Shown in pieces: positions 3,350 through 63,008 of a stretch of DNA of 64,000 bases. Position numbers and translations under genes: made by a program. Location: NCBI GenBank assembly GCA_902778535.1, contig CACYYG010000003.1:13345-77344 (forward strand), in the 5' to 3' direction. The stretch is from an uncultured Prevotellaceae bacterium. Lineage in GTDB: Bacteria > Bacteroidota > Bacteroidia > Bacteroidales > Bacteroidaceae. Under the pieces are notes generated by a model, which made no database searches, had not been told where the DNA came from, and saw nothing but the letters and a program-made list of their open reading frames with translations. Position 1 is the stretch's first letter, and the number at the start of each line of letters is the position of its first letter.

Positions 3350-3550
3350 CTATTCGGTAATTAAATCTCTTTTTTCACACTCTAGTAACTCTGCAATCTT
3401 GTCTATCGTCGGTAGTGTAGGTTGAGTTATATTACTACACCACTTCGATACTGTAACAGCAGTTACGCCCAACTGTTCAGCAAGCCATACACCAGTCTTG
3501 TCTTTCTCAACCAATACAAGTTTTAGACGATTTAATTTCTTCTTATTCAT
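3350..3550 (-). CDS. XRE/Cro-C1 family HTH transcriptional regulator (66 aa)
   Basis: MNKKKLNRLKLVLVEKDKTGVWLAEQLGVTAVTVSKWCSNITQP is a typical Bacteroidetes HTH_3 protein. True start is ATG 3550, not the track's 3715. Confidence 0.9.
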   Translation of the reverse strand: MNKKKLNRLKLVLVEKDKTGVWLAEQLGVTAVTVSKWCSNITQPTLPTIDKIAELLECEKRDLITE

Positions 3551-3573
3551 ATTTAATTCCTTAAATTTCGATG

Positions 3574-3581
3574 CAAATATA
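3574..3581 (-). promoter_or_regulatory. Bacteroidetes sigmaA -7 box (TATATTTG) for the XRE gene
   Basis: Matches TAnnTTTG on the minus strand, 24 bp upstream of ATG 3550. Confidence 0.6.
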
Positions 3582-3724
3582 ACTATAAAAGTTGAGAACA
3601 GAGAGCATGGCTTATTAAAACTTATTAAAAAGAGTTCTTGTGGGCTTGTTTTGGAGCCAAAATGGAGACAATCTGATTTTTTTTTTCTAATTTTGTACCC
3701 AATAGAAATAAACAATTAGCAAAA

Positions 3725-4696
3725 ATGGAAAAAGCTTGTTTTACGAATATAAGTAGTGAGATAATTTCATTACTTAATAATGCAAAAAGTGAGGTATTGG
3801 TTGCAATGGCATGGTTTACCAGTGCAGAATTATTTGAAGCATTACAATCCTGTATAAGTAGAAAAGTACATGTTGAACTCATTCTGTTAGATAGTCCAAC
3901 AAACTTTATGTATTATGCTCCTGATTTCAATAGACTTCTAACTCCTCATAGCTGTTTAAGAATAGCAAAGCAAGATGTTGGAATTATGCATCATAAATTT
4001 TGTATAATAGACAGCAAGTTGGTAATTACAGGCTCATATAATTGGACATACAGAGCAGAAACCTATAATATCGAAAACGTGTTAATTACAGATGTTTCTT
4101 CCATAGTTTATTCTTATAGACAAGAATTTGACCAGTTGGCTTCAAACATTGAAATTTCAACTTATAGTCCTAGATTAACTTGGAATGAGATTCAACAACG
4201 GGATGATGTGGATGTTCGTGAGATTAATTATGAGATAAAACATATTTGCAAAACTCGAAATCTTCCAGTCATGAATGTTATCAAAGCGAGCACTGTTGTG
4301 CAGGTTGTAGAAACAAAACGTATACCGTATGCAAATAGGTATATTGGTATAGAAGTTATTGATAACAACAAGAATTATTTTGATTCGTTTATTGAACCCA
4401 GGGAGCAGCTTCCAATCAAAACTAAAACTCACAATTTATATTTTGACAGCATGAATGAGACTGTGTTTCCCTGTACATTCATCTGTGGAACTACAAACAA
4501 CAGGGATTCAGCTCAACTTATCAAGGAAGTCAATTTGATTGACCTAACAAAGGGAATTTCAGATCTAAATCTATTGATTCAATTTTCTATGTCGCTAGAT
4601 GTAAATGGAAGTTTACGAATTGACATTACTTGTCCGGCTACTGGCAAAAAAATGATGATAAGTGATATCAACTCTAATTATGTAAAATATGAGTAA
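3725..4696 (+). CDS. Phospholipase D-family (single HKD, Nuc-like) protein fused to a C-terminal Hsp70 substrate-binding-domain-like region
   Basis: HHKFCIID...TGSYNWT HKD motif at ~3989-4050. C-terminus IGIEV...IEPREQLPIK...FSMSLDVNGSLRIDITCPATGKKMMI aligns by eye with DnaK LGIET...IAKNTTIPTK...[26 protein letters not shown]. Confidence 0.8.
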   Translation: MEKACFTNISSEIISLLNNAKSEVLVAMAWFTSAELFEALQSCISRKVHVELILLDSPTNFMYYAPDFNRLLTPHSCLRIAKQDVGIMHHKFCIIDSKLVITGSYNWTYRAETYNIENVLITDVSSIVYSYRQEFDQLASNIEISTYSPRLTWNEIQQRDDVDVREINYEIKHICKTRNLPVMNVIKASTVVQVVETKRIPYANRYIGIEVIDNNKNYFDSFIEPREQLPIKTKTHNLYFDSMNETVFPCTFICGTTNNRDSAQLIKEVNLIDLTKGISDLNLLIQFSMSLDVNGSLRIDITCPATGKKMMISDINSNYVKYE

Positions 4697-7334
4697 AGTA
4701 GTTAGCAAATACAGGTCTATTGTTAGGGAAATAAATAGAGCATTCTATCTATTTCAAGAGCTTTCAAATGATGAATTGAGACATGAGATGATTATGATAG
4801 AGCAGGCTGTCGAGCAAAGTAATTATAAAGCAGACTGCTTAGAGGAAAATCTCGTAAAAGTGTTTGCTATCGTAAAAGAAACTGCAAGACGCTTTTCAGA
4901 AGGGAATATTATCGTTTTAGCAAATGACTACGACAAGTACCTTTCAGAGACGTATGATTTTGTTGTTATAGAAAACGACAAGGCAATATATAAAAACAGG
5001 TGGGATGCTGGCGGAGTACCATTTGAGTGGAACATGGTACACTATGATGAACAGCTATTGGGTGGTATATTACTTCACAATGGTTATGCGGTTGAAATGC
5101 TGACGGGAGAGGGGAAAACTCTTGTCGCCACCCTACCTGTTATGTTGAATGCTCTTACGCATGATGGAGTGCACATGATGACCGTGAATAGCTATTTGTC
5201 AAAGCGAGATTTTGAACTCACACGTCCTTTGTATATGTTCTATGGGCTTACGGCAGACTGTATTGAGTATTATCCTAATGGAAGCGTTAGGCGCAAGAAA
5301 GCCTACAAAGCAGATATTACGTTTGGAACTAATTCTTCATTTACTTTTGATTATTTGTATGATCACCTTGCTATGGACCCTTCAGAATGTGTTCAACAGA
5401 AACACACATTCGCAATCATCGATGAGTTGGATTCAATACTGATTGATGATGCAGGAACTCCACATGTCATAGGCGGTGGCAACTATTATAATCATGGCAA
5501 ATATTATGAGGAGAATCTTCCAATAATAAAAGAACTTTTGGAATCAGGGAACGCTCTTTCTCTCTACGAATCGGATTCTTTGCATAAAAAGGCTGAATTC
5601 ACAAAGGATGGAAAGGCATGGCTTGCTGCAAAAAAACAGATTCCGGATTTATTTGCTGTTGAGAAAACCTATGAAATTGATGATTTTGACGAGCTTATTC
5701 CAACAGAAAAGAATGAATTATTAGAAAAAATGTTCATTCAAAATGTCCTTTATCAGTTGCTCGTTGCTTTTACAGTTTATGAGAAGGATATAGACTATGT
5801 CGTAGATAATGGTAAGATTAAAATAATTGACCAAAATACAGGGCGCATTAAAGAAAGTAACAGGTGGGAACATGGATTGCATTCTGCCATAGAAGTGAAG
5901 GAAGGGGTTAAGGTTCAGGATGATTTTGACGGTATGGCCGTCATATCGTTAAAGAACTATTTCAAGCTATATCACAAAGTCGCAGGTATGTCAGGAACGA
6001 TCATGGCTGTGAAAGACGAGTTGGAAGATGTCTATGGCTTGAAGTGTGAATCATTACCCACCCACAAACCTCTTATCCGCTTAGACATGCCATTACGGGT
6101 TTATAGGACAGAGGAACAAAAAGAAAAAGCTATTATTGATCTCATCATAGAAAACAAGAAAAATGGTCGGCCAACATTGTTAGGATGCATCAACATAAAA
6201 CGTTGTGAAAATATTGCTTGTCTGCTTGAAGTACAAAATATACCATTCAATCGTTTAGATGCTAAAACCATCAAAGGAGAAGCAGTCACCATTGCAAAAG
6301 CCGGAATCGGGAATACTATTACAGTAGCTACAAGCGTTGCAGGACGTGGAACCGACATCAAGCCATCGCAAGATGCGCTCGACAATGGTGGACTGATGGT
6401 CATTGGTACCGATTTGTTTGACTCAGTCAGAATAGACAATCAGTTGAAAGGAAGGACGGGAAGACAAGGCAATCCTGGCTCTTCCGTGTTTTTTGCATCT
6501 TTAGAAGATTCTATACTACAATACCTTAGCAAAGAAGATCAAATCCAATTAGAAATGATTTTTAATAACAAACAGGCCAACGAACTCAATGATACTCAGG
6601 TCTTGTCTTTCTTCGCAAAAGCCCAGTCTAACAGAGAGTCCTTGTCATATCAAAGTAGAGTAAGCACGGCGCGAAAGGATGATGTTGTTGCTCCACGCAG
6701 GTTGAGATTCTATAGCCAGCGTAATGAATTGCTCTTTAATCCAAATAGTGCTATTACGTTAGTTGAACAAATTGCCAAAGCCAACAACGTTCCCATTGAA
6801 ACTATAGACAAACATTTGAACGAATTATACCAGACCACCAAAGAATTACTTAATAGAAGTCTTAGAAATAATCCATACGCTTTACGAGCCTTAGTGGCTT
6901 TCTCTAACAACAGACATTCATTTGCCATCCATTTAAATATTCATTCTGTTATTAATAGTTGTGTTGACTTTGAGACAGAGTTTAAGAGGCAAGTATTACT
7001 GCAAGTCTCAGATAAGGAATGGAAAAAATTTGTCATCTATATGATGGGGGATTTGGATAACCATGAAATCGATTTGCTAGATGAAAGATATGAGAAGATG
7101 ATGGATAAAATAAAAGCCATTGTCCTTAGTAGGCTTACAAATTCCACAATCATTTTCGATGAAAAAAAGCAAGAAGATTACATTTATAGAAAAGAGGAAC
7201 CTTCTTCCGAGCCAGTAAAATCTCATAACACCATTGCCCCCGATGATCCCTGCCCATGTGGCAGCCAAAAAAAATACCGTGAATGTCATGGTCGAGGCAT
7301 TCACGGCACTCCTATGAAGAGACGTAGACGTTAG
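4689..7334 (+). CDS. secA: Divergent SecA paralogue (881 aa) with C-terminal SEC-C motif
   Basis: MVHYDEQLLGG, MLTGEGKT, IIDELDSILIDDA, YFKLYHKVAGMSGT, VATSVAGRGTDIK, DNQLKGRTGRQG and PCPCGSQKKYRECHG. Start overlaps the PLD gene by 8 nt. Confidence 0.9.
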   Translation: MSKVVSKYRSIVREINRAFYLFQELSNDELRHEMIMIEQAVEQSNYKADCLEENLVKVFAIVKETARRFSEGNIIVLANDYDKYLSETYDFVVIENDKAIYKNRWDAGGVPFEWNMVHYDEQLLGGILLHNGYAVEMLTGEGKTLVATLPVMLNALTHDGVHMMTVNSYLSKRDFELTRPLYMFYGLTADCIEYYPNGSVRRKKAYKADITFGTNSSFTFDYLYDHLAMDPSECVQQKHTFAIIDELDSILIDDAGTPHVIGGGNYYNHGKYYEENLPIIKELLESGNALSLYESDSLHKKAEFTKDGKAWLAAKKQIPDLFAVEKTYEIDDFDELIPTEKNELLEKMFIQNVLYQLLVAFTVYEKDIDYVVDNGKIKIIDQNTGRIKESNRWEHGLHSAIEVKEGVKVQDDFDGMAVISLKNYFKLYHKVAGMSGTIMAVKDELEDVYGLKCESLPTHKPLIRLDMPLRVYRTEEQKEKAIIDLIIENKKNGRPTLLGCINIKRCENIACLLEVQNIPFNRLDAKTIKGEAVTIAKAGIGNTITVATSVAGRGTDIKPSQDALDNGGLMVIGTDLFDSVRIDNQLKGRTGRQGNPGSSVFFASLEDSILQYLSKEDQIQLEMIFNNKQANELNDTQVLSFFAKAQSNRESLSYQSRVSTARKDDVVAPRRLRFYSQRNELLFNPNSAITLVEQIAKANNVPIETIDKHLNELYQTTKELLNRSLRNNPYALRALVAFSNNRHSFAIHLNIHSVINSCVDFETEFKRQVLLQVSDKEWKKFVIYMMGDLDNHEIDLLDERYEKMMDKIKAIVLSRLTNSTIIFDEKKQEDYIYRKEEPSSEPVKSHNTIAPDDPCPCGSQKKYRECHGRGIHGTPMKRRRR

Positions 7335-9802
7335 TTTTCCTTTACGAAAGGAACCAAGAAATCGTTGATATACAAGAAGAAAGAAATTGATCTGTCGGGA
7401 TTTTTAACAGCCAGCATTGGATTACAGGTATTTATGGACTCATCTGCGGCCTTTTTGGCTATAAGTTCCATTGATGCAGGTGTATATGTACCAGCTTTTT
7501 CTGTCGAATATGTATAGTCGCCTATATAGTCAATAATACCCTTTGAAGTTCTGAAAGCATCCTCTAATAGAGGCTTTGCGTTAATAGCATCTATCATGTG
7601 CGTAACCATAATAAGTTGGCCATCCCTGCTATAGCTTCCAAGTAAATATCCTATTGGCCCGTCAGTAATGTCATCCATATCTTCTCCGTCAAATATTGTT
7701 TCTGAACTAATAGCCATTCGAATGCCATAACCATCGAGTTTATAAGTTTCTAAACGATCAGCAACCACGCCTCTATTATCATGTGACCATATTGTGCTAT
7801 GTAGGTGCTCTCCTTGTCCTATTTTAATATTTAATTCACGTACAAAGAGATTTACAAGCGAAGCTATGTCACTATTTGTAGCGAGGAAAGTTGGTGAATA
7901 GCAGCCGCTCCCTTCAAGATAGAAGTTCTTGGTATCTTGTTCTATACGTGATAAGTACGCTTTACGTAACTCAAAAGGATTACCGTCTTTTGAAGAAATA
8001 CATAATAGATTTGATGAATGGTTTGTAATACATAAACTGACGATATCCGTTTCGGGAACGGCATAGCTAATGAAATGAAGCATTTCGTTACTTCCTGTGC
8101 AATCAATTATCAAATCGTAATCCTTTATCTGTTTTATGCTATCCTCTTGGTTACAGTAATTGATATTTCCATAGAAGGAGCCGCCTTCATAAGTGTAGTC
8201 ATTGACATTGTCATGTTGATGCCAGTAACCATTATCTTTGATTTCCTTTGTTTTTATAAATGGGTTTATTGAGAGTAGTCTTTTTTTAAGAGCATCAACC
8301 TTACTTGTCCCCAAATCAGATAGTAGATATATGCTTCTGCAAATATTCCCAGGTTCTACAATGTCACTATCCCATAGTCCCATAATAGTAACTCCACTTC
8401 TTGCTAATGATTCGGCAATCATGGAACCCAATGCCCCAAGACCAACTAGTGCAATTCTCTTGTTTTGGAGTTGTTGCGAAAATAATCCTCTGCCAAAGAA
8501 CAAATTGTTATCAATAATCTGTGGGAGTTGAAGCTGCAATGGGAAAGATATAGGTTTTCTCAGGTTTATGTCCCTCAAATTCAGATTAAAAGACATTTCA
8601 TCGTATTGACCTGCTTGTCTGTTTGTATAGCATAAAAGCCAAGTGGTTTTTTCTGAATCTCTTATGCCCAATGCAAAACAGTGGTATTCATAAGGGTAAA
8701 CATATATGGCATAGTCCTCCTCAGCTTGTCTTGCATATTCTTCTTCCAACTCTTCTTCTGTCATTTCGTCAAGGTCTTTGGCTGGTCCGGAAAGTGAAGC
8801 GAAAGGTCTATAACCGTTATATTTCTTTATTTCTTCTTCAAGTCTAACAAGACATTCGTTTAGCAGTGTCTTTTGTTGAGGCAACACCTTTGTTTGGACA
8901 TAATCAGGATTTTTATTTATACGTGCTGGGAGGTATGACTCTTCTTTTGCCAGTTCTTCCTTTATCCCAGTTAAGATAATGTTAGCTTCTTCAAAAGAAT
9001 AGTTGTTAAAACTGATTCTATAAGAGCCACCTTCAGCCCATGACTTGCTTAGATTAAAACCATGTAATAAATGCTCACACGTTTTCTCATCCCAGTCATA
9101 CTGATTCTTAAGGAGTATAAAATCTCTATAAGTATCAATATTCTTGGGGGCTTCATCAACTATTATATATGGTAACTCATAATTTGCCAATTCTTTGTTT
9201 TGGAGAGCATAAAAACGTTTATCTGGTGTCTTGATGCAATGGATAGTACCCATTTTTTCTTTAAAATAATCCATGTCATTGGAGAAATCTCCAACAAAAG
9301 TCAAAATAGCATCACCATGATATTCACTTAACTCATCACTGTTCTCCCAACTATAAGCACTCTCGAAAGCTAGTGCATTTCTTACGTTTTCGTCTTCGAT
9401 AACAGCTTCTAAGTCTGGCCGCATTTGACGACCTATCCATTCTTTAAGACGGAGAACTTCTATCTCTAATTGGTTCTCGGCGGTTTCAGCAAAGGGTGTA
9501 TTCAAGCAAAACCATCCACCATATTTCTCAGCCTTTGGATCCTTTCTCGGATTGTAAATCAAATGAGGATACCCAAACAGTGATTTAGTTCGAAACATCA
9601 ACTTCTGATGTGGAAAGGACATTGGGATTTCCACTCTCAGTTCAAGTGGGTGAATTGTATTGAGAACTTCAATACGACCCACATAACATTTTTTTTCTTC
9701 CTTGTCTTCTGATTCCTTGAATTCCTCAATGACACTAAAGCCTGGATGATTCTGGAAGAATGAAGTGTAGAAAGAAGCGTCTTTATACTCGAACATAGCC
9801 AT
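7331..9802 (-). CDS. E2-like + ThiF/E1 + degenerate JAB fusion (823 aa), Cap2-like conjugating enzyme
   Basis: N-terminal E2-like YPHL...WFCLN (C99); ThiF motifs VGLGALGS and DSDIVEPGNICRS; E1 catalytic-type GSGCYSPTF (C634); C-terminal GYLLG...YIGDYTYST...NPMLAV is JAB/MPN-like but lacks HxH. Confidence 0.85.
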   Translation of the reverse strand: MAMFEYKDASFYTSFFQNHPGFSVIEEFKESEDKEEKKCYVGRIEVLNTIHPLELRVEIPMSFPHQKLMFRTKSLFGYPHLIYNPRKDPKAEKYGGWFCLNTPFAETAENQLEIEVLRLKEWIGRQMRPDLEAVIEDENVRNALAFESAYSWENSDELSEYHGDAILTFVGDFSNDMDYFKEKMGTIHCIKTPDKRFYALQNKELANYELPYIIVDEAPKNIDTYRDFILLKNQYDWDEKTCEHLLHGFNLSKSWAEGGSYRISFNNYSFEEANIILTGIKEELAKEESYLPARINKNPDYVQTKVLPQQKTLLNECLVRLEEEIKKYNGYRPFASLSGPAKDLDEMTEEELEEEYARQAEEDYAIYVYPYEYHCFALGIRDSEKTTWLLCYTNRQAGQYDEMSFNLNLRDINLRKPISFPLQLQLPQIIDNNLFFGRGLFSQQLQNKRIALVGLGALGSMIAESLARSGVTIMGLWDSDIVEPGNICRSIYLLSDLGTSKVDALKKRLLSINPFIKTKEIKDNGYWHQHDNVNDYTYEGGSFYGNINYCNQEDSIKQIKDYDLIIDCTGSNEMLHFISYAVPETDIVSLCITNHSSNLLCISSKDGNPFELRKAYLSRIEQDTKNFYLEGSGCYSPTFLATNSDIASLVNLFVRELNIKIGQGEHLHSTIWSHDNRGVVADRLETYKLDGYGIRMAISSETIFDGEDMDDITDGPIGYLLGSYSRDGQLIMVTHMIDAINAKPLLEDAFRTSKGIIDYIGDYTYSTEKAGTYTPASMELIAKKAADESINTCNPMLAVKNPDRSISFFLYINDFLVPFVKEN

Positions 9803-9808
9803 CTCTAT

Positions 9809-9946
9809 TTATGCGTGACCTCTTGGAGAAGGTGTTGAGGTCGGTGGATTCTGTGTTGATACTCTCGCCTCAGGTTCTTTACGAGTAGTTCTGAGGACAG
9901 TCCGATTTGACGGGCCAATACCATTGTATGAAGGATTGTTATTCAT
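9809..9946 (-). CDS. Unannotated 45-aa low-complexity peptide MNNNPSYNGIGPSNRTVLRTTRKEPEARVSTQNPPTSTPSPRGHA, candidate E1 substrate/modifier
   Basis: ATG 9946 to TAA 9809; the stop is 6 nt before the E2-E1 ATG; a -7 box lies just upstream. Below the ORF-track size cut-off. Confidence 0.7.
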   Translation of the reverse strand: MNNNPSYNGIGPSNRTVLRTTRKEPEARVSTQNPPTSTPSPRGHA

Positions 9947-9976
9947 AAGTAATATTCATTTGATTATATGATTTTG

Positions 9977-9984
9977 CAAAAGTA
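9977..9984 (-). promoter_or_regulatory. -7 box (TACTTTTG) of the peptide/E2-E1-JAB operon
   Basis: Perfect TAnnTTTG on the minus strand ~30 bp upstream of ATG 9946. Confidence 0.65.
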
Positions 9985-53996: not shown

Positions 53997-54423
53997 CGAC
54001 TTATCCAGTCGGCTAGCGTAGAACGAGGCCACAATGGCTTCCGGAAGAACAAGTCGATGTAGAAGCAGAAGAGGATCCGCTGGAGTACCGCATCGACGGG
54101 ACGAATGCTTTCGATACGTTGTAAATAGGCTGTGAAAAATTCCTGCATTATGATATCTACCCTGACACAATAGGCGGCATCTTGCAGTCTTCTACTCAAA
54201 CAGGTCTAATTATCTAAGAGAATTTGTACTCTTGCCCCAAAAACTGATAGTTATGAGTAAAGAAAGTCAGACAATTTCGACGAGTAAATATCATCTCTCG
54301 CATACGACATTGATGAAGCATTTCTTGAAACACTCAAGAAACATGGTGATTTTGTGATATCGATGTTATGCGCGTACATATTAAAAAAAATAAAAAATAT
54401 TTCATTTTTTGCTTCAAATTTGC

Positions 54424-54600
54424 TAACTTTGTAGCCAATTAGCAGTTTTGGCGTAAGCCTTCACCGCTACCCGACAAAGACCAATAAGGCTAAAAGCCTA
54501 AAACATAGAAATATAGAACTCCCTTATAGCGAATTAAAAGGTTTGGTCACCTGTCGAGTCGCTATTTGGGAGTTTCTACGTTTAAAGAGTTTAATATCAA
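54424..54600 (+). promoter_or_regulatory. -7 box TAACTTTG (54424-54431) and a ~180-nt structured 5' leader
   Basis: Perfect -7 box; several complementary segments before ATG 54619 (see findings). Confidence 0.55.
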
Positions 54601-54618
54601 CTACTAAATAATTAAATC

Positions 54619-55251
54619 ATGAGTAAACTTAAAGATTTAGCATTTTCACTAAACTTATCAGCAGGAATACCTGGTATGAATATACAATCTAAGACTGCTG
54701 ACAAATTTCAGGAGTATGCAGATGCTTTATACGACTATACAACAAAAAATCTAGAAGATTTTTTATCAATAAGTGATAATGATGGTTATCACGTAGGAAT
54801 GGCATTTAGCCACATCTTAGAACATACTTCTTACAAAGAATCTGACAATGTTTTCAATGAAGAAAACAACAAATTTAACATGTCTCTTCACTGTACAGTT
54901 ATAGGTCTGTGGAGAGGTATACAAATGGGAACGATGCAATCAGTCATTGCTGCGCAAAGGTTAATTTATCTTCTAGAAAAGTATAAAACCCATTTCGACA
55001 TTATGTATGCCAAATTGACAGGAATGTCATTAAATGATCTAATGGAATCTGATAAAGAAGATGTAGAAGCGAAGAAAGAGAACATATGCAAGTGCATCCT
55101 GTATTATTTGATACAAATTACAAAGGCACAAGACGCTTTCAAAGATGCTAACATGAAAGCTTGTGAAATAGGAAAGAAATACCTAGACGTGATGCATGAT
55201 GAATATTGTGAAGATTTAAAAGGCTTTTCTTTGTTTGGCATCATAATGTAA
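54619..55251 (+). CDS. Hypothetical helical protein (210 aa)
   Basis: Long ORF in AT-rich DNA; first gene after the leader; no recognised motif. Confidence 0.7.
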   Translation: MSKLKDLAFSLNLSAGIPGMNIQSKTADKFQEYADALYDYTTKNLEDFLSISDNDGYHVGMAFSHILEHTSYKESDNVFNEENNKFNMSLHCTVIGLWRGIQMGTMQSVIAAQRLIYLLEKYKTHFDIMYAKLTGMSLNDLMESDKEDVEAKKENICKCILYYLIQITKAQDAFKDANMKACEIGKKYLDVMHDEYCEDLKGFSLFGIIM

Positions 55252-55263
55252 AAATTATATAAT

Positions 55264-55590
55264 ATGCAAATTAACGCAAACAACATAAGTCCTATCGTTT
55301 TCGAAAAGGCAAAAAAATATCTCCCAGTAAGACTGTCAACAACATCTTTTGATGGTATCGGTGAATGTATGTGCATTGTTGCTAACAGAGCTGATGGCAT
55401 GACAACAGAAATAGTTGAGAACATAAATTCAGAAGTATTTATCACACTGATGAATTCAGCGCTATACGAGGATATAAAACGTCGAGTTTTGAATATGGAC
55501 TATTGGGTTCCCAATAAATGGTATAACACGATTATTGGCTTCGCTGATGGTATAGAACGTAAAATTCATTTAGATTGTGACGTTTTCTAA
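55264..55590 (+). CDS. Hypothetical protein (108 aa)
   Basis: Tight operon spacing (12 nt before, 21 nt after). Confidence 0.6.
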   Translation: MQINANNISPIVFEKAKKYLPVRLSTTSFDGIGECMCIVANRADGMTTEIVENINSEVFITLMNSALYEDIKRRVLNMDYWVPNKWYNTIIGFADGIERKIHLDCDVF

Positions 55591-55611
55591 AGTTCTCAAA
55601 TACAAATAGAA

Positions 55612-56676
55612 ATGGCATCTTGGCAACACAGAGATATAAAAGTTAATGGTGTGCCTGTTAAAGCGCAGGCTCCTATTATCGTTTCTGCAAGCAGAAGTAC
55701 TGACATTCCTGCTTTTTATGCAGATTGGTTCTTCGATAGGTTAGGAAAAGGGTACTCAGCATGGACAAACCCTTTCAACGGCGTAAAGTCATATATATCA
55801 TACGACCTAACACGCTTCATTGTATTCTGGTCTAAAAATCCTGAGCCTTTAATACCCTATTTGCACATACTAAAAGAGAAGAATATAAAGTGCTATATTC
55901 AATACACGTTGAATGACTACGAGGAAGAAAAACTTGAAAAGGTTCCACTTCTCGTAAAACGAATTGAAACATTCAAGTCACTTGTTAAGATATTAGGTAA
56001 AGGTGCTGTTATTTGGCGTTTTGACCCAATGATTCTTACAGATAATATTAGTGTAGAACTACTTCTTGAAAAAGTTAAGAATATAGGTGACCAATTGAAA
56101 GGATATACTGAGAAACTTGTTTTCAGTTATGCTGACATCGCTATGTATTCAAAAGTAAAGCGAAATCTCAAGACAAATGGAATACCTTATCATGAGTGGG
56201 AAGCCTCTCAAATGGAAGAATTTGCAGAGAAACTATCTGCAATGAATGAAGAAAGAGGATGGAACTACAATCTTGCTACATGTGGCGAGAAAATTAATAT
56301 TGAAAAATATAAAATTCTTCATAACCGATGTGTTGATGGCGACTTAATTACCCGTCTAGCCTGGGAAGACAAAGAACTAATGAAGTTCATGGGAGTGAAG
56401 ATTGAAAATGTTCCGCAACCTTCTCTTTTCGGAAGCATCGAATTACCAGAAGGCGCAATTCTTCTTCCTCAGAATCACTATTTCATAAGCACTCATAAGA
56501 AAGATCCAGGGCAACGCCAGTTCTGTGAATGCATGGCATCGAAAGATATAGGTGAATATAACACATGTCCTCACCTTTGCGAGTATTGTTATGCCAATGC
56601 GACTAAAGAACTAGCACTAGACAATTGGAAAAAGCATCAAGAAAACAAATACAGTGATACGATAACAGGAAAATAA
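55612..56676 (+). CDS. DUF1848 family protein (radical-SAM/SPL-like)
   Basis: IVSASRSTDIPAFY, IVFWSKNP, IWRFDP, DIGEYNTCPHLCEYCYAN (CxxxCxxC). Confidence 0.88.
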   Translation: MASWQHRDIKVNGVPVKAQAPIIVSASRSTDIPAFYADWFFDRLGKGYSAWTNPFNGVKSYISYDLTRFIVFWSKNPEPLIPYLHILKEKNIKCYIQYTLNDYEEEKLEKVPLLVKRIETFKSLVKILGKGAVIWRFDPMILTDNISVELLLEKVKNIGDQLKGYTEKLVFSYADIAMYSKVKRNLKTNGIPYHEWEASQMEEFAEKLSAMNEERGWNYNLATCGEKINIEKYKILHNRCVDGDLITRLAWEDKELMKFMGVKIENVPQPSLFGSIELPEGAILLPQNHYFISTHKKDPGQRQFCECMASKDIGEYNTCPHLCEYCYANATKELALDNWKKHQENKYSDTITGK

Positions 56677-56678
56677 TT

Positions 56679-59600
56679 ATGCCCGGCTTCATAGAAACAT
56701 TCATAAGTAGAGGAGATTTCTCATTTAAGGGAATGAGAAATACTGCTATTGCACTACTTCCGAGAAGCAGGATGGAGCGCGACAAGCTCTATAATGACTT
56801 GAAACGAGGTATAGGCATACTAGATGACGATGATCACTTGAATATGTATCTAAATAGTTTTGGCAAAATGCACAAAGCAAAACTTGATACAGCATTCAAT
56901 TGTATTCAAAACCCCTCTGAGCTATTCAGAAATCCTGTAGATGTATATGATTGGGGATGCGGACAAGGTACTGCTACAATTTGCCTTCTTGATTTTTTAA
57001 AGGAAAAATCAATTAACGCTAACATCAGGTCAATAAACCTTATTGATCCTTCTTTGGCGGCTGTTGAAAGGGCAACAGATGTTATCGGATGCTACAGTGA
57101 CTACCAAATTAACCAAGTCACAAAGGTATTTGATGATTTACAATCAGAAGATCTTTCACATTCTGAAAATCTAAAAATACATCTATTCAGTAACATTCTC
57201 GACGTATACATGTTCGACCTTGCACAATTCATCCATCTTTTTCAAGAATCGTTCAAGGGCGACAACTATTTCATTTGTGTTGGACCGTACTATGCAAACA
57301 ATAACCGTGTAGATGAGTTTATTGCCGCAACCGACCCTGACACCATGTTTGCAATAGCGAATAGGGAAAGAGGAAAGTGGTTGAATGAATGGACTATATC
57401 ATTAAGAGTATTCTGCAAAACATTTGCTCAGACAGAAACTGTTCAGAATATTAGAAAGCGTATCGAGGAATCTCAAAAGAAACAACAATTTTTTGCTGGC
57501 TATATCCTGGACGCAGTTGCTGAAGAATATAAAGGCACCGACATAGAAGAGATTACTGAGGAACTGTTTAACTCTCTTTCGGCCTTTGACGTTAAATCGA
57601 ATTTGCCACTTGATACGAATAGTGAATGTAACTCAAAACTTGCTATTATAGCAAACATAATATCAAGAGGCTTACCAACTAAAGCCCCAATATATTTAGA
57701 AAATCTTTTTTCAGAAATCTATGGTATTTCGAAGAAACCCGAGGAAGGATCTATTTTAGAATTTCCATCTACCCACAAGATCAATGCAACAAATATTAAT
57801 GATGCATTGCATATAATAGACCCACGCTTTGATGTAGAAACGTATGATGGTGATATGCTGGAAAGTAGTTTCGAAAAATCATTTATCGAAAACTACCTCA
57901 AAAACTCAGATAGTCAATATCTGATTCAATTATTGGAACCGCAGCGTCCACTTTCTACCATTGTGGATATTCCTGACCGAAAGTTTAGCAAAGACCAAAG
58001 GGTTGACTTTGCTTTAGAAATACCCTATGGGGATTCGGATACTGGCTTTATCATAGAAGTAGATGGTAGACACTATCATTCTAATATTTTCCAACGCTTA
58101 AGAGATGAGCGAAGAGATCGGATGTCTTTAAATAGAGGTTGGGACACTTACCGTATCGACCAGATACAAAATACCGCGTTCATAGATAATTGGGAAAAAG
58201 AAGCGTCAACCTCTCAATATCTGTCTAAGATAAAGACAAATAACTCCAAGTCAATAACTGGTGCTTGGAAAGACACCTTACAAATTGTCTTGGCGCCTAT
58301 TGCTATAGCGCGAATAGAAAGAATGCTTGTTGAAGCAATGATGTCAGGTGCTTTAGATCTAAATTCTGAAACATGGAATATCGTAGTGGTTGAAAGAGAC
58401 GTACCTTGTGCAGCCATTGCTTTATATGACCTCCAAGAAAGGTATAACATGCTTAGCGGTCTTGCTGGTGACTTTGACAAACTGCCACGGATTAACCTAT
58501 CCATTGTCTCTACAAACGAGTTTTGTGATTCAAAGTTGCACTTGGATTTTAAGGCATCAACAGACATGCCAAAGGCACATTTTGACCTGTGCATTGATAT
58601 TTCCATGCTGCTTCGAGACAATATAGATGCACTACCTTTGCATATAGATGCAGACGCTTTTTATCTTGTGCGTTCATCTCACTACAAGAAACGCGAAAGA
58701 ATTATCTGTTCAGCAGAGAACATACAGTATCCTGCTCTTGTTACAAGAGATGAAGCAGGAGCCTACAAGAATATAAAAGAACGTGAAGGCTTCCTAACAT
58801 ATTTTCTTCGTGATATATTCCGTAAGCCTTCATTTAGGCCTGGTCAACTCCCAATACTTAGCCATGCACTTGCAGATAAGACAACAATTGGTTTACTTCC
58901 TACAGGAGGTGGAAAATCTCTGACTTACCAGTTATCATGTATCTTGCAACCTGGCGTTTCCATCATTGTGGACCCATTGGTTTCTCTGATGGTAGACCAA
59001 GTAAGAGGGCTGCAAGATATTCGCATAGATGCTTGTGGTTGTGTACATAGTGGCATGAATGGGATGGAGAAAGCGAAAAAGCTAAACCTTTTACAGAAAG
59101 GGGCTGCCTTCTTGATGCTTCTGTCGCCAGAGCGCTTTATGATGGAAAACTTTAGGGATAGCCTTTTAACTATGACTGAAAAGAACCATATCTATTTCTC
59201 CTATGGAGTAATAGATGAAGTCCATTGCGTTTCAGAATGGGGGCATGATTTCCGAACATCATACCTACATTTAGGACGAAATATGATTAACTTCATGCAC
59301 ACTAAATCTGAAAGGCCTCTTTCAGTTATAGGCTTGACAGCTACTGCTTCCTTCGACGTTCTTGCAGACGTAGAAAGAGAGTTAACACTTGGGGGAAATC
59401 TGGCTATAGATAGCGAAGCTGTTGTTAGACCCGAAAATGATGCAAGGCCCGAGCTGACATATCGCATTATTAATATACATGCAGACTACGAGACCTTAAG
59501 GGATTCTACAGAGCCATATATACTTAACATAAATAATGACTGGGACCTAAAAGATGTAGTTGCAGAAGCAAAGAAAAAGGAATTGGAACAAATCTTCAAA

Positions 59601-61886
59601 ATTGTTCCTGAAGATATTGACTCTCTCAATTCGACTAATGAGTCTTGCAGGGTGCCAAATTACGCTTCATCAGCTTTCTTCACTCCTACAAGTCAGCATA
59701 AATACACAAATGCCGGCATTGTTTTCTGCCCTCATGCAAGAGGAACATTTGGTGTTCAAACAAATGAATGGGGTACGAGAATTGGCATCTCAGAAACTCT
59801 TTCAGAAGAAAATGATTTCTTGAAGGTCGGAAAATTCGTAGGTGGTGACAAACCATCTGGAGACATGAAATCCTTTAACGAAAACGACCAGAATTTGATG
59901 GTTGCCACAAAAGCCTTTGGAATGGGTATTGACAAACCCAATATTCGATATACAGTTCATATCAACCATCCTGCTTCTATAGAAAGTTACGTACAAGAGG
60001 CAGGCCGTGGTGGACGTGATAGAAAAAATGCCATTTCATATGTGCTTTTCGAAAATACAGAATATGTCCATTTTACTGTTGACAAGATAAACGACATACG
60101 TTATTATATGGGGGCTGCTGACCCAGTCTGGCTAGAGAGATACATTAACAAATTTGTTTTACTGAACGATATTCCTGAATTGTGTGCAAGAAACGGAGCA
60201 AATGCGGAACAAACGACATCGCTCATCAATATATTACATACATATAATTATCTTGAGAATGTTGACAAGAATATCGACCTGTGGTTTCATAACGAATCAT
60301 TCCGAGGACTTTTCAAAGAAAAAGTGATTCTGACTGAAATGACAGACCGCATTTTGAATGTCAAGCCTTCATATATATTAGAAGTTCAAGGTATGCTTCG
60401 GGAACTGACAGGTAACAACGATGTTAGTCTCAGAGTTGATAGGAACCGAAACAGTGTCATTCTATTTTCTGAAGAAGACAACCACAACCAATACGGATAC
60501 TTATTCTTAGACCGATTGTATCCAATATACAGAAACGTGAATTTCGACTATGCCACTTGCCAATATGTTACTAACAGCTTAATATCAATCTTACAGAGAT
60601 ACGAAGATCATTCAGCAACTTTTCTTCTCCGTCCATTGGAAGGTGAAGACAATCTTGCTGAAGGCATTTATAGTGCGATGGCTCAAGCCGATGAAGATGG
60701 GTATGTTTATGTAACCGTTTCTTGGGAAAACCAAATTCAACAGGCCCCAGAAGATTTTGAACGTAGCATAAGAGAAGAAATAAAAAGAATTGCAGATTCA
60801 CAACAATGGCAGAATATCGATGAAGCAAGATATGGTAGACTCAACCTCAGAAAAGTTGGAGACTTTGATGAATTGATTGCCCAAATTGCTAGATGTTCAA
60901 ATGATTCACGTTGGTTAAGAAACCATGGTAACGAGCAATTGTATAGACAACTTAATCTCTGTTTTTGCAAGAAAAGAGACAAAAATGATACCGATAAGGC
61001 TATATACCGAATGTGCTGTATCGGATTGGTAGAAGACGTCACTATCGATTATTTGTCACAAACATACGAGCTTAAAATTAAAAAACGGACAGACGAAGAG
61101 TTCAGGCAATACATGCTTGATTTCTTTAGAAAGTATTATTCTCTTGAACAGGCTCAAACAAGAGTTAATCAAATAGACCAGCAAAGAGGTCGTAACTATC
61201 TCGACAAATGCCTTGGATATTTAACAGCATTTGTATATGAAAACCTAGAAAAGAAACGCTACCGTGCAATCGAAGACATGAGGATTGCTTGTGAAGATAG
61301 CATCACAGAAAGAGAGAAAACAAATAGTGACGAATGGTTGAAAGAATTTATTCACCTATATTTCAACTCTAAATACGCAAGAACGGGGTATCAGGTAAAT
61401 GGAGCCGACTATTCTCTTACTGATGACACGGATGAGAGAGGAGAAGATACTTATGATGTTGTAAAAAAATATATAGACATCATACCAAATGATGGTTCTG
61501 GAAGCGAGATTGATAATGTGAAACACCTATATGGTGCCACTTTGTTATGTCTTAGAGCGCACCCCGATAATCCCGCATTGCAACTCCTTCTAACTTACTG
61601 TATTACATTCTTAGGTGCAGGAACTAACGAGACTTTGAAAGCCAATGCCTTCAATGGTTATATGGATGGTTTTATGACACTATATAAAAAGGACAAATCT
61701 AATTTCTGGAACAACATGAGCCATTTTAATTCTTGTTTGGCTGCAAAAGTTCATAATGATGATGATTATATTAGAGAGAACATAATTGAGAAAGGTAAAG
61801 AAACGGTAACCCTATTCATTCATGAAGAGAGATTAAATGAAATTTCATCTTCATACCTTCAATTTCCTGAAGAAACCGATAATTAA
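56679..61886 (+). CDS. 1735-aa RecQ-family helicase with N-terminal SAM-MTase-like and DUF559/Vsr-like nuclease domains
   Basis: DWGCGQG (~56949); RVDFALE...IEVDGRHYH (~58000-58080); LPTGGGKS (~58895); DEVHCVSEWGHDFR (~59215); ATKAFGMGIDKPN (~59905); YVQEAGRGGRD. Confidence 0.9.
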   Translation: MPGFIETFISRGDFSFKGMRNTAIALLPRSRMERDKLYNDLKRGIGILDDDDHLNMYLNSFGKMHKAKLDTAFNCIQNPSELFRNPVDVYDWGCGQGTATICLLDFLKEKSINANIRSINLIDPSLAAVERATDVIGCYSDYQINQVTKVFDDLQSEDLSHSENLKIHLFSNILDVYMFDLAQFIHLFQESFKGDNYFICVGPYYANNNRVDEFIAATDPDTMFAIANRERGKWLNEWTISLRVFCKTFAQTETVQNIRKRIEESQKKQQFFAGYILDAVAEEYKGTDIEEITEELFNSLSAFDVKSNLPLDTNSECNSKLAIIANIISRGLPTKAPIYLENLFSEIYGISKKPEEGSILEFPSTHKINATNINDALHIIDPRFDVETYDGDMLESSFEKSFIENYLKNSDSQYLIQLLEPQRPLSTIVDIPDRKFSKDQRVDFALEIPYGDSDTGFIIEVDGRHYHSNIFQRLRDERRDRMSLNRGWDTYRIDQIQNTAFIDNWEKEASTSQYLSKIKTNNSKSITGAWKDTLQIVLAPIAIARIERMLVEAMMSGALDLNSETWNIVVVERDVPCAAIALYDLQERYNMLSGLAGDFDKLPRINLSIVSTNEFCDSKLHLDFKASTDMPKAHFDLCIDISMLLRDNIDALPLHIDADAFYLVRSSHYKKRERIICSAENIQYPALVTRDEAGAYKNIKEREGFLTYFLRDIFRKPSFRPGQLPILSHALADKTTIGLLPTGGGKSLTYQLSCILQPGVSIIVDPLVSLMVDQVRGLQDIRIDACGCVHSGMNGMEKAKKLNLLQKGAAFLMLLSPERFMMENFRDSLLTMTEKNHIYFSYGVIDEVHCVSEWGHDFRTSYLHLGRNMINFMHTKSERPLSVIGLTATASFDVLADVERELTLGGNLAIDSEAVVRPENDARPELTYRIINIHADYETLRDSTEPYILNINNDWDLKDVVAEAKKKELEQIFKIVPEDIDSLNSTNESCRVPNYASSAFFTPTSQHKYTNAGIVFCPHARGTFGVQTNEWGTRIGISETLSEENDFLKVGKFVGGDKPSGDMKSFNENDQNLMVATKAFGMGIDKPNIRYTVHINHPASIESYVQEAGRGGRDRKNAISYVLFENTEYVHFTVDKINDIRYYMGAADPVWLERYINKFVLLNDIPELCARNGANAEQTTSLINILHTYNYLENVDKNIDLWFHNESFRGLFKEKVILTEMTDRILNVKPSYILEVQGMLRELTGNNDVSLRVDRNRNSVILFSEEDNHNQYGYLFLDRLYPIYRNVNFDYATCQYVTNSLISILQRYEDHSATFLLRPLEGEDNLAEGIYSAMAQADEDGYVYVTVSWENQIQQAPEDFERSIREEIKRIADSQQWQNIDEARYGRLNLRKVGDFDELIAQIARCSNDSRWLRNHGNEQLYRQLNLCFCKKRDKNDTDKAIYRMCCIGLVEDVTIDYLSQTYELKIKKRTDEEFRQYMLDFFRKYYSLEQAQTRVNQIDQQRGRNYLDKCLGYLTAFVYENLEKKRYRAIEDMRIACEDSITEREKTNSDEWLKEFIHLYFNSKYARTGYQVNGADYSLTDDTDERGEDTYDVVKKYIDIIPNDGSGSEIDNVKHLYGATLLCLRAHPDNPALQLLLTYCITFLGAGTNETLKANAFNGYMDGFMTLYKKDKSNFWNNMSHFNSCLAAKVHNDDDYIRENIIEKGKETVTLFIHEERLNEISSSYLQFPEETDN

Positions 61887-61898
61887 AATCAATAAAAT

Positions 61899-62882
61899 AT
61901 GCCACACGACATTAATTCTGCATTAGAGAGACTTGAGCAGAATCTCGAAAATCTTGATTCTGCAAGGGAACAGGTATTAAACACTGTCAACGCCAGTAAT
62001 AAACTTACGGATATCGTTGGTATTTACGTTACTTCCGTACAAAAGTTAGTAAATAATCTTCAAGCATGGTCAGAAGATCTTTCCGCACGTGAAGCATCAT
62101 TGAAAGCAGAAACAAAATCTTCAATCGATGAAATTAAGAATTCATGCAATTTGGTTATTAACTCTTTTAGCACTAAAGCTGCTAGTCTTTCTGATAGTTT
62201 CAAAACAAAAACAGAAGAAACTATCAAATCTTTTTCGGACGAAAATACAAATCTCAAGCAAAGCATCGAGAATTTAAATGGCCTCCAAGCTAAAATACAA
62301 GCATCAGTTGAGGAGATTACTTCTATAAAAGTATCTATAGATCAAATATTGAAAGACCTAAATGATTCTCAATCTAAACAAGATGAAGACCTGAGAGTTA
62401 TCAAGGAGGATATTTCTAATTTGCCAACAACAATAAAAAATGCAGAAACTACCATTACTCAGAGTATTAGTAATACTGAAAAAACACTTTCATCTGTTTT
62501 ATCCCAAATAAAAACAGACGTTAATGCTTGCATCAACAAAGGAAATGAGATTACTAGAGATATTTCATCTTTGCAAGAAACTGCTGGCGCCATTCAATCT
62601 GCTATAGCAGATCTTTCATCTACCCAATCCCAGATAATAACCTCGGCAAAAGATGAAATCATAACCAGTATTTCAGAAAAAAGCAGTAGCTTAAATGCTA
62701 GCATTGAAAGCCTGAAGGCTACCTGTCAAACAATATCATCCTCTATTACCAATCATGCGAAAGAATTAAAGGATGAAATAGTAGCAGCAAGAAACGAATC
62801 TGCTAAAGCATCTAAAATCAACCGAATAATATTGATAATAGGAATTATTGTATTAGCCATACTTCAATTACTAATAAAGTAA
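61899..62882 (+). CDS. Coiled-coil protein with C-terminal TM anchor
   Basis: Heptad-rich S/I/L/E/K/T sequence ending RIILIIGIIVLAILQLLIK. Confidence 0.8.
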   Translation: MPHDINSALERLEQNLENLDSAREQVLNTVNASNKLTDIVGIYVTSVQKLVNNLQAWSEDLSAREASLKAETKSSIDEIKNSCNLVINSFSTKAASLSDSFKTKTEETIKSFSDENTNLKQSIENLNGLQAKIQASVEEITSIKVSIDQILKDLNDSQSKQDEDLRVIKEDISNLPTTIKNAETTITQSISNTEKTLSSVLSQIKTDVNACINKGNEITRDISSLQETAGAIQSAIADLSSTQSQIITSAKDEIITSISEKSSSLNASIESLKATCQTISSSITNHAKELKDEIVAARNESAKASKINRIILIIGIIVLAILQLLIK

Positions 62883-63008
62883 ATGCAAGAGTCGCGAAAC
62901 TCTCCTTTTGCATAAAGGCGTGAATGCATTGCTATATTCTGCAGTTTTGTTCCGATAGAATTTCTGCAAGGCTTTGTACGTCGAATAATTAGCGAATACT
63001 TTAATATG

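Follow-up and report, generated by a model that had tools for sequence, protein, structure and literature searches.

A nuclease–Hsp70 domain fusion and a SecA paralog as the candidate effector arm of a mobile four-gene cassette with a proposed role in conflict in Bacteroidales

The window analyzed here, a 64,000-nucleotide stretch from the genome of an uncultured Prevotellaceae bacterium (contig CACYYG010000003.1 of assembly GCA_902778535.1), contains two overlapping genes, one for a PLD-type nuclease fused to an Hsp70-like substrate-binding domain (SBD), referred to below as nuclease-SBD (P0001), and the other for a paralog of SecA (P0002). An earlier note on this DNA, made from the sequence alone, had described them as a two-gene operon whose SecA- and DnaK-like parts might guard against phage proteins. 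The operon is not self-contained: its two genes form one arm of a cassette of four, and a related three-gene form lacks SecA. The first arm (nuclease-SBD followed by the SecA paralog) is convergent with a second, which consists of a gene for a 45-aa peptide followed by a gene for an E2-E1-JAB ligase (P0003). On balance, we favor the view that this pair serves as the effector/reader arm of the cassette, which spans 3688–9984 and would be a mobile unit for biological conflict. The cassette as a whole may be an E1-E2 peptide-conjugation defense system, with nuclease-SBD as its putative effector or reader and the SecA paralog as a putative cytosolic polypeptide motor, an assignment that we make with modest confidence.

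The arrangement was analyzed by tblastn searches of the four products on loci retrieved through nuclease-SBD homologs. All full-length homologs (36–57% identity) outside one SecA-less clade have a SecA-like gene directly downstream where that sequence is readable, and more divergent homologs on short contigs (35–38% identity) are also followed by an overlapping SecA-like gene. Apart from this distinct clade, the only nuclease-SBD without the pairing is a stand-alone copy from a viral contig. We identified 16 distinct loci with nuclease-SBD and an adjacent SecA-like gene in Bacteroidales and some Clostridia, the pair being convergent with the peptide and ligase genes; the homologs at 36–57% identity come from Bacteroidaceae, Muribaculaceae, Porphyromonadaceae, Bacteroides fragilis, other Bacteroidales, and Oscillibacter. 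The convergent ligase gene is present wherever the contig reaches far enough, and the peptide gene in most cases (cassette loci L001–L009, L012–L017, L019, L022, L023, and L106, with nuclease-SBD identity down to 36–38%). Two short contigs, L014 and L018, break off within the ligase gene or ahead of it, and on the short contigs L018, L100, and L102 the nuclease-SBD/SecA pair alone is readable. At 68 loci with a match to the PLD domain alone, neither a SecA-like gene nor any other partner was present. The pairing of nuclease-SBD with the SecA-like gene is far beyond chance.

The two genes overlap by 8–23 nt in most loci, with a 13-nt gap in L106. In the window the overlap is 8 nt (ATGAGTAA) and couples the two genes translationally; here the two reading frames, their coordinates, and the coupling given in the earlier note proved exact, and the pairing that it saw recurs in other genomes, usually with overlapping genes. 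At its other end, the SecA-like gene meets the convergent ligase gene so closely that their stop codons overlap by 4 nt.

Evidence for mobility came from a Bacteroidaceae locus (L001), in which a 300-nt direct repeat (95% identity) of the comM 3′ end brackets the four genes alone, its copies lying 6948 nt apart. A repeat around exactly these four genes implies that they insert as a unit. Identity in this locus is 77% for the SecA paralog, 54% for nuclease-SBD, and 87% for the peptide. Among species genomes the system is sporadic: only one of 401 species genomes of the order has it, namely the window's own genome, and 12 loci were detected among 185,579 species representatives. In metagenomes, hundreds of clusters (at 90% identity) were found, some of them on >180 contigs. 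Prevalence was drawn from metagenomes and the 185,579-species scan because the order-level survey was too sparse. Sporadic occurrence in species genomes together with high frequency in metagenomes is the pattern of an accessory, horizontally moving element. A scan of viral contigs yielded no cassette, only the single stand-alone nuclease-SBD.

The local context agrees with what the note had described as AT-rich cargo. The GC content of positions 3–10 kb of the window is 0.33–0.39, compared with 0.53–0.59 in the neighboring conjugation backbone, and the region beside this AT-rich island encodes a TraG/VirB4-type conjugation ATPase, implying that the gene pair is cargo of a conjugative element. 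The defense-like genes reported around the pair could likewise be confirmed: a 1105-aa Schlafen/AlbA_2 protein and the Cap2-like E1-E2 ligase are close by, and REase-ARP, NOV_C, and an S24-peptidase/ImpB pair are encoded farther left on the contig. Across the loci as a whole, most neighbors are defense genes, including TOTE helicase/DUF7017/WYL, AAA_21 with RloB, reverse transcriptase, AbiEii, MZB helicase, PIN-helicase, YhcG, an Eco57I-type enzyme, REase-ARP, and Schlafen genes.

The TOTE genes (a PIF1-type helicase with TBP-TOTE, DUF7017/S1CSD-TOTE, and WYL) adjoin the cassette in three arrangements (2431–7747 in L004, 14327–16975 in L005–L009, and 241–5023 in L014). A gap of 9 nt separates the end of the WYL gene from the nuclease-SBD start in L014. 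This adjacency could reflect either co-residence in islands or a functional link. The window's own neighbor is an S1/OB and AlbA_2 protein rather than the TOTE genes.

The ligase P0003 matches the PADLOC E1-E2 model PDLC00827 (E = 2.4e-70) and ThiF (E = 3.4e-20); its best NCBIfam match is 6A-MBL cap2_3, with 84.9 bits against a cut-off of 320. Both the E2 Cys (WFCLN) and the E1 Cys (GCYSPTF) are present, and the JAB metal site is degenerate (DYTYS). In related loci with a readable region, the peptide gene is kept 5′ of the ligase gene. The 45-aa peptide is disordered and carries two conserved motifs, PSYNGIG and, at its end, TPSPRG[HY]A-stop.

The SecA-less sister clade provides a comparison. 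It comprises about 15 clusters at 90% identity with a nuclease-SBD of about 357 aa, and its genes lie on one strand in the order peptide, E2-E1-JAB, nuclease-SBD, in four distinct contexts (L020, L021, L103/L104, and L105). Here JAB has a full metal site (EWHTHPE...SGTD; Prok-JAB, E = 2.2e-11), and the peptides run 2–3 residues (SE, YE, or YKY) past ...PRPYA. In the SecA-containing cassettes examined (12 distinct sequences), the corresponding site is DYIGD[YF]xYS, in which both metal histidines are lost and Y-x-Y replaces H-x-H (the B. fragilis site, DYIGDIFET, has also lost both), and the peptides stop exactly at ...PRG[HY]A, ...SRPYA, or ...TRAYA. Judging from these residues, JAB is active in the SecA-less and dead in the SecA-containing cassettes. 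The association among JAB state, tag end, and SecA presence is perfect across the loci examined. Such a pattern would be expected if the peptide is a ubiquitin-like substrate whose C-terminal Ala is exposed by JAB where needed and then activated by E1. The E2 Cys (WFCLNTPF) and E1 Cys (G[ST]GCY[ST]PTF) are kept in both clades despite a ligase identity of 33%. The N-terminal PSYNGIG motif of the peptide is also loosely kept in both, and the peptide of the SecA-containing clade has a conserved hydrophobic-basic stretch (TVLRTTRKE) as well; both motifs are candidate docking sites.

Small operons of an E2-E1(-JAB) ligase and a hydrolase effector are known from type II CBASS, 6A-MBL, and Bil. Like type II CBASS (Cap2/Cap3), the cassette has an E2-E1 fusion with catalytic cysteines (its best PADLOC match being a CBASS E1-E2 model), a putative flexible-tail substrate activated at a small C-terminal residue, and a JAB partner. 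Unlike CBASS, it has no CD-NTase or cyclic-nucleotide effector at any locus; its putative substrate is a free 45-aa peptide, its JAB belongs to the fusion and is dead where SecA is present, and its putative effectors are nuclease-SBD and the SecA paralog. The 6A-MBL anti-phage system, which has a metallo-beta-lactamase (MBL; NCBIfam NF058523), appeared as class 6a in Iyer et al. 2006 (PMC1779556), the first to note this architecture, and has been cited as a validated system (PMC13276650; bioRxiv 10.1101/2025.09.30.679545). It shares the E2-E1-JAB triple module, the small operon, and a hydrolase effector. However, the ligase falls far below the 6A-MBL cut-off, no MBL gene was found at any locus, and the cassette has instead the HKD nuclease-SBD, the peptide gene, and, in the SecA-containing type, the SecA paralog. 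We found no description of the four-gene cassette in the literature searched, nor any published description linking a SecA paralog with PLD, E1/E2, or defense. Three things appear to be new: a free disordered 45-aa peptide as the putative substrate, an effector made of an HKD nuclease and a lidless SBD-beta, and a recruited SecA paralog without membrane/SecY contacts.

Nuclease-SBD of the window consists of a single-HKD PLD domain (aa 13–138), a helical linker, and a lidless SBD-beta-like domain (aa ~201–323). The first part matches Pfam PLDc_2 over aa 13–138 (E = 1e-25) and contains the motif HHKFxxxD...GSYNWT, in which H89, H90, K91, D96, G103, S104, and N106 are invariant in 30 of 30 sequences, with one HKD copy per chain. 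A profile of 30 homologs, compared with solved structures, matched Zucchini/mitoPLD (E = 1.8e-20) and Nuc (E = 2.5e-14), and also NucT. These similarities place the PLD domain in the single-HKD nuclease branch (Zucchini/Nuc type).

The C-terminal domain is less obvious. Pfam detects no Hsp70 SBD in P0001, even when the C-terminal 184 aa are searched alone, and a profile search of the family against PDB sequences reached Hsp70 SBDs only at E ~ 1. The link to Hsp70 therefore required structure and relatives. An AlphaFold2 (AF2) model of residues 140–323 (m3559e3daa702) has a predicted local distance difference test score (pLDDT) of 81.5, and all 50 of the 50 Foldseek matches listed against PDB are Hsp70 SBDs (DnaK, BiP, Hsc70, and Kar2). 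The match to DnaK 4ezp has E = 2.7e-7 and a root-mean-square deviation of ~2.6 Å over 121 columns, and template modeling (TM) scores reach 0.68 against chains containing SBD-beta only. Using hhalign, the nuclease-SBD family aligns colinearly with E. coli DnaK 389–540 (E = 0.015), pairing IGIE with LGIE, LP with IPT, and D-NG-L with DADGIL. E. coli DnaK served as the reference because the host DnaK was not retrieved by a PF00012 search of the source genome.

Among relatives, P0290 on a viral contig gave a Pfam HSP70 match at positions 392–493 (26.3 bits, cut-off 20.6; E = 2.7e-6), weaker matches were found in the B. fragilis copy (L019, E = 0.0042) and in P0287 (E = 0.04), and nine family members have precomputed PF00012 annotations. 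The chain has no nucleotide-binding domain, its N-terminal half being the PLD domain, and no alpha-helical lid; it ends at the last beta strand. A phmmer search of the SBD against 1.84 billion representatives returned only 41 clusters, none of which is an Hsp70; the full-length ones share the ~320-aa fusion architecture and the others are shorter fragments. The C-terminal domain is the Hsp70 SBD beta-sandwich only. The domain calls of the earlier note for this protein, PLD and Hsp70 SBD, were therefore borne out, the former by PLDc_2 and the latter by AF2/Foldseek and by Pfam in relatives. The SBD is the least conserved part of the protein, with a mean pairwise identity of 54% compared with 66% for the PLD domain.

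Recruited Hsp70 parts are known elsewhere in defense: CoCoNuT systems have Hsp70-like NBD/SBD units (PMC11090510), and lidless DnaK-like domains are found on EACC1 protease modules (PMC12642450). P0001 differs from both in having the SBD beta-sandwich alone, with no ATPase domain, fused to an HKD nuclease.

Three further observations concern Hsp70-related sequences. The PF00012 search of the source genome, which is rated 100% complete, returned a weak 28-bit match only and no DnaK, which may be a filter miss rather than a real absence. The stand-alone copy on the viral contig (IMGVR_UViG_3300045988_164461; L096, 8001–9002) is a 333-aa nuclease-SBD with 28% identity; it has no ligase, peptide, or SecA-like gene nearby, and of all family members it shows the clearest resemblance to Hsp70 in sequence. 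In Oscillibacter sp. MSJ-31 (Firmicutes; L023, 3205–6376), the cassette follows recA and the housekeeping dnaK at a distance of ~1.1 kb, a proximity to dnaK that is probably due to chance, yet curious given the Hsp70-derived domain.

The second protein, P0002, is SecA-like, as the note had proposed, and has all SecA domains: Pfam detects SecA_DEAD (E = 1e-81), SecA_PP_bind (4.8e-18), SecA_SW (8e-7), P-loop_SecA, SEC-C, and Helicase_C (1e-5), and the alignment with SecA in PDB (E = 5e-115) includes the ATPase motifs. The motifs GEGKT, DELD, GRGTD, and GRxGRQG (Walker A/B and arginine finger) are invariant in 28 family members, and the PPXD clamp, the helical scaffold, and the SEC-C zinc finger are all kept. 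In a Foldseek search with the AF2 model (pLDDT 83.7, predicted TM-score 0.75), the top 36 matches are all SecA, the best being a substrate-engaged SecA (6itc_A, TM 0.80).

A housekeeping SecA is encoded elsewhere in the source genome, on contig C9; P0002 shares with it 35% identity and a Bacteroidota-specific insert in the first nucleotide-binding domain (NBD1), implying that P0002 descends from a Bacteroidota secA. The Oscillibacter copy (L023) has this NBD1 insert in the alignment too, which indicates transfer across phyla.

Several features of housekeeping SecA are missing from the paralog. P0002 starts at the equivalent of residue ~15 of Bacillus subtilis SecA (its residues 3–4 align to 17–18), and the N-terminal amphipathic lipid-binding helix is absent, with no upstream extension of the reading frame possible. 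According to the family profile alignment, which is otherwise colinear, the two-helix finger is 13 residues shorter than that of B. subtilis SecA; its tip motif LRxYAQxxPLxEY is replaced by a well conserved, family-specific GNLDxHEIxLLDxKY, and the BLAST alignment of P0002 to the host SecA ends just ahead of the finger. P0002 scores 662 bits against a cut-off of 1493 for the NCBIfam SecA model and stays under the cut-offs of all four NCBIfam SecA2 models. Compared with housekeeping SecA and SecA2, it retains the full SecA fold with DEAD motor, PPXD, scaffold, and SEC-C, but it is an additional copy carried by a mobile island, and its neighbors are a nuclease and a ligase, never Sec components. 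We infer that P0002 is a soluble, active polypeptide motor, probably located in the cytosol.

Nearly all copies end in the SEC-C zinc finger followed by a polybasic tail, with a conserved RRRR run after SEC-C. The SEC-C tail of P0002 (aa 850–881, window 7239–7334) also matches the C-termini of the PADLOC CBASS E2 models PDLC00865/870/871/872 (E = 6e-4 to 6e-3) and PDC-S12; SEC-C tails therefore recur on ubiquitin-like defense enzymes. In one metagenome copy, L006 (8968–11616), the SecA-like gene is broken into three reading frames (542, 246, and 78 aa) and the remaining genes of the cassette are intact, suggesting that the motor is decaying in some strains.

One alternative is that the SecA paralog, reused as a superfamily 2 (SF2) translocase on nucleic acid, delivers the HKD nuclease to the DNA or RNA of an invader or positions it there, like the helicase+PLD pairs of DISARM (DrmA/DrmC) and Mokosh, with only a regulatory role for ligase and tag. 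SF2 helicases are the usual partners of defense PLD nucleases, and nuclease-SBD matches the PLD models of DrmC, MkoB/C, and DpdK. In addition, the best match of the nuclease is Zucchini, a protein that acts together with an RNA helicase. The DEAD-like motor itself matches Helicase_C, its lower Foldseek matches include the DinG, XPD, and Hna helicases, and the zinc finger and RRRR tail found on nearly all copies could bind nucleic acid; RNA binding has also been proposed for the Hsp70 units of CoCoNuT (PMC11090510). However, the polypeptide-handling parts of SecA (PPXD, scaffold, and clamp), which a plain helicase would not need, are kept and highly conserved, the closest structural matches are substrate-engaged SecA, and the remainder of the cassette is built on a peptide and a peptide ligase. 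We therefore consider the helicase reading improbable.

Membership in DISARM or Mokosh was rejected. These systems resemble the cassette in having a single-HKD nuclease and an SF2-type ATPase in defense islands, and weak DrmC, MkoB, and MkoC matches were obtained; however, the PADLOC matches cover only the PLD domain, the partners DrmA/B/(D,E,MTase) or MkoA/B are absent, and the ATPase of the cassette is a complete SecA rather than a helicase. PADLOC gave no system-level match for the pair (generic DrmC-type PLD matches for the first gene and nothing system-specific for the second), in line with the remark in the note that no system could be named.

The guard or decoy function proposed in the note, in which the SecA-like and DnaK-SBD-like parts are mimics bound by phage attackers or by unfolded phage proteins and thereby trigger the nuclease, fared less well, and we now regard it as very unlikely. 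We know of no phage inhibitor of SecA, which counts against it. Both domains do come from host protein-handling machines, the paralog even having the Bacteroidota-specific NBD1 insert; the SBD evolves fastest, as would a sensor of foreign ligands; and defense protease modules with fused lidless DnaK-like domains exist (PMC12642450). On the other hand, every ATPase motif is invariant and the SecA paralog is the more conserved partner (77% vs. 54% in L001), which fits an active enzyme better than a passive mimic; the membrane- and SecY-coupling surfaces, the likely points of attack, are those that have been lost; and of DnaK only the SBD beta-sandwich is represented. The hypothesis also ignores the peptide and ligase that accompany the pair and does not account for the retention of nuclease-SBD in the SecA-less variant. 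The conserved peptide of the cassette itself offers a simpler candidate for the ligand than would phage inhibitors acting on SecA or DnaK.

A non-immune role also seems improbable to us in either of two forms. In the first, an addiction or competition module, a labile peptide antitoxin would plug the SBD of a toxic nuclease, and ligase and SecA would control its turnover; in the second, the nuclease would be an inter-bacterial toxin exported in a SecA2-like manner. Location as cargo of an integrative and conjugative element, insertion hot spots, and the decayed SecA-like gene in L006 speak for such a role. The combination of a small peptide with a nuclease bearing a peptide-binding domain suits the addiction module, but the peptide is presumably cotranscribed with the ligase and not with the nuclease, and the correlation of tag end with JAB state suggests a chemistry in which the C-terminus is activated. 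As for export, accessory SecA2 proteins exist, but the nuclease has no signal peptide, and the paralog is missing both the lipid helix and the full finger, on which SecYEG export depends. The accessory SecA2 reading was rejected, given the unmet SecA2 cut-offs and the nuclease and ligase as neighbors.

Under the conjugation-defense hypothesis that we prefer, the ligase would adenylate the C-terminal Ala of the tag and conjugate the tag with a target protein, in the way that Cap2 acts on the tail of CD-NTase. The cleft of the nuclease SBD-beta and the SecA clamp would bind the extended tag or the tagged protein, SecA acting as a cytosolic, ATP-driven polypeptide handler and not as a SecYEG translocase. 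Binding would recruit or release the HKD nuclease, which is putatively dimeric, and the nuclease would then cut nucleic acid and thereby stop either the invader, such as a phage, or the infected cell itself.

Several points weigh against this hypothesis. The target, the sensing step, and the physical link among tag, SBD, and SecA are hypothetical, and the defense role is suggested by context and by the homology of the ligase to CBASS Cap2 and 6A-MBL. Some loci border housekeeping genes, such as recA-dnaK in L023 and dxs in L015. The SBD evolves fastest while the tag is highly conserved, and an SBD facing a variable foreign ligand fits this at least as well as one that reads the tag; part of the idea of a sensor of unfolded or foreign proteins thus stays alive. 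The association among JAB, tag end, and SecA comes from two clades only and may represent a single evolutionary event. Finally, the existence of the SecA-less variant means that the core chemistry can do without the motor, which is an accessory to it.

A more specific version, which we put forward only tentatively and consider unlikely as it stands, is a Pup-like pathway. The disordered 45-aa tag would be ligated through its Ala by E2-E1 onto phage or self proteins, the SecA-derived cytosolic motor would thread the tagged chain, and the SBD nuclease would read the same chain and be switched on. The resemblance to the Pup-proteasome is one of analogy: both would use a small, disordered, ribosomally made tag ligated at its C-terminus and an ATP-driven threading motor, but E1/E2 stand in place of PafA, a SecA-derived motor in place of an AAA+ ring, and a nuclease in place of a protease, with no homology between them. 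If this were true, immunity would have its first SecA-derived motor, and E1-E2 cascades their first substrate that is a free peptide without a beta-grasp fold.

E1-E2 conjugation is accepted in bacterial immunity (CBASS Cap2, Bil, and 6A-MBL). The cassette would be a compact test case for the targets and readers of such tags, having a free 45-aa tag, one ligase, and two polypeptide-binding modules wired to a nuclease. Its two variants are a ready genetic contrast: SecA, dead JAB, and mature tag in one, and no SecA, active JAB, and extended tag in the other. To our knowledge, it would also be the first case in which SecA, the universal secretion ATPase, was duplicated, lost its contacts with membrane and SecY, and spread across phyla on defense islands; if true, SecA would be able to work as a soluble polypeptide motor. 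The cassette is common in gut Bacteroidales metagenomes and may bear on the dynamics of gut phages and plasmids.

The features of the cassette are listed in table 1. We take TAATTTTG and TACTTTTG as candidate Bacteroidota −7 boxes on the basis of the consensus TAnnTTTG. A scan for sigma-70 promoters and terminators was uninformative for promoters and found no terminator at the convergent junction.

Table 1. Coordinates of the cassette features in the window
Feature	Position	Strand	Basis
Candidate −7 box TAATTTTG, 30 nt 5′ of the nuclease-SBD start codon	3688–3695	+	Read from sequence
Nuclease-SBD gene (P0001, 323 aa)	3725–4696	+	Open reading frame; Pfam PLDc_2, 1e-25
Hsp70 substrate-binding beta-sandwich of P0001	4325–4693	+	AF2/Foldseek, hhalign, Pfam in relatives
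Overlap ATGAGTAA of nuclease-SBD stop and SecA-like start, 8 nt	4689–4696	+	Read from sequence
SecA paralog (P0002, 881 aa)	4689–7334	+	Open reading frame; Pfam SecA domains
Cap2-like E2-E1-JAB triple fusion (P0003, 823 aa)	7331–9802	-	PADLOC, ThiF
45-aa peptide gene MNNNPSYNGIGPSNRTVLRTTRKEPEARVSTQNPPTSTPSPRGHA, candidate C-terminally activated tag	9809–9946	-	Open reading frame and conservation
Candidate −7 box TACTTTTG, 30 nt 5′ of the peptide start codon	9977–9984	-	Read from sequence

Elsewhere in the window, a small reading frame of ~67 aa (MNKKKLNRLKLVLVEKDKTGVWLAEQLGVTAVTVSKWCSN...) on the minus strand at 3351–3551 resembles an XRE-type helix-turn-helix protein by its sequence; the list of reading frames places its start at an upstream TTG (3350–3715). 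It lies directly 5′ of the gene for the 1105-aa S1/AlbA_2 (Schlafen-like) protein and is probably its regulator. A second AT-rich island (35–40% GC) was observed at 54000–63000, with a 1735-aa reading frame at 56679–61886 and flanking genes.

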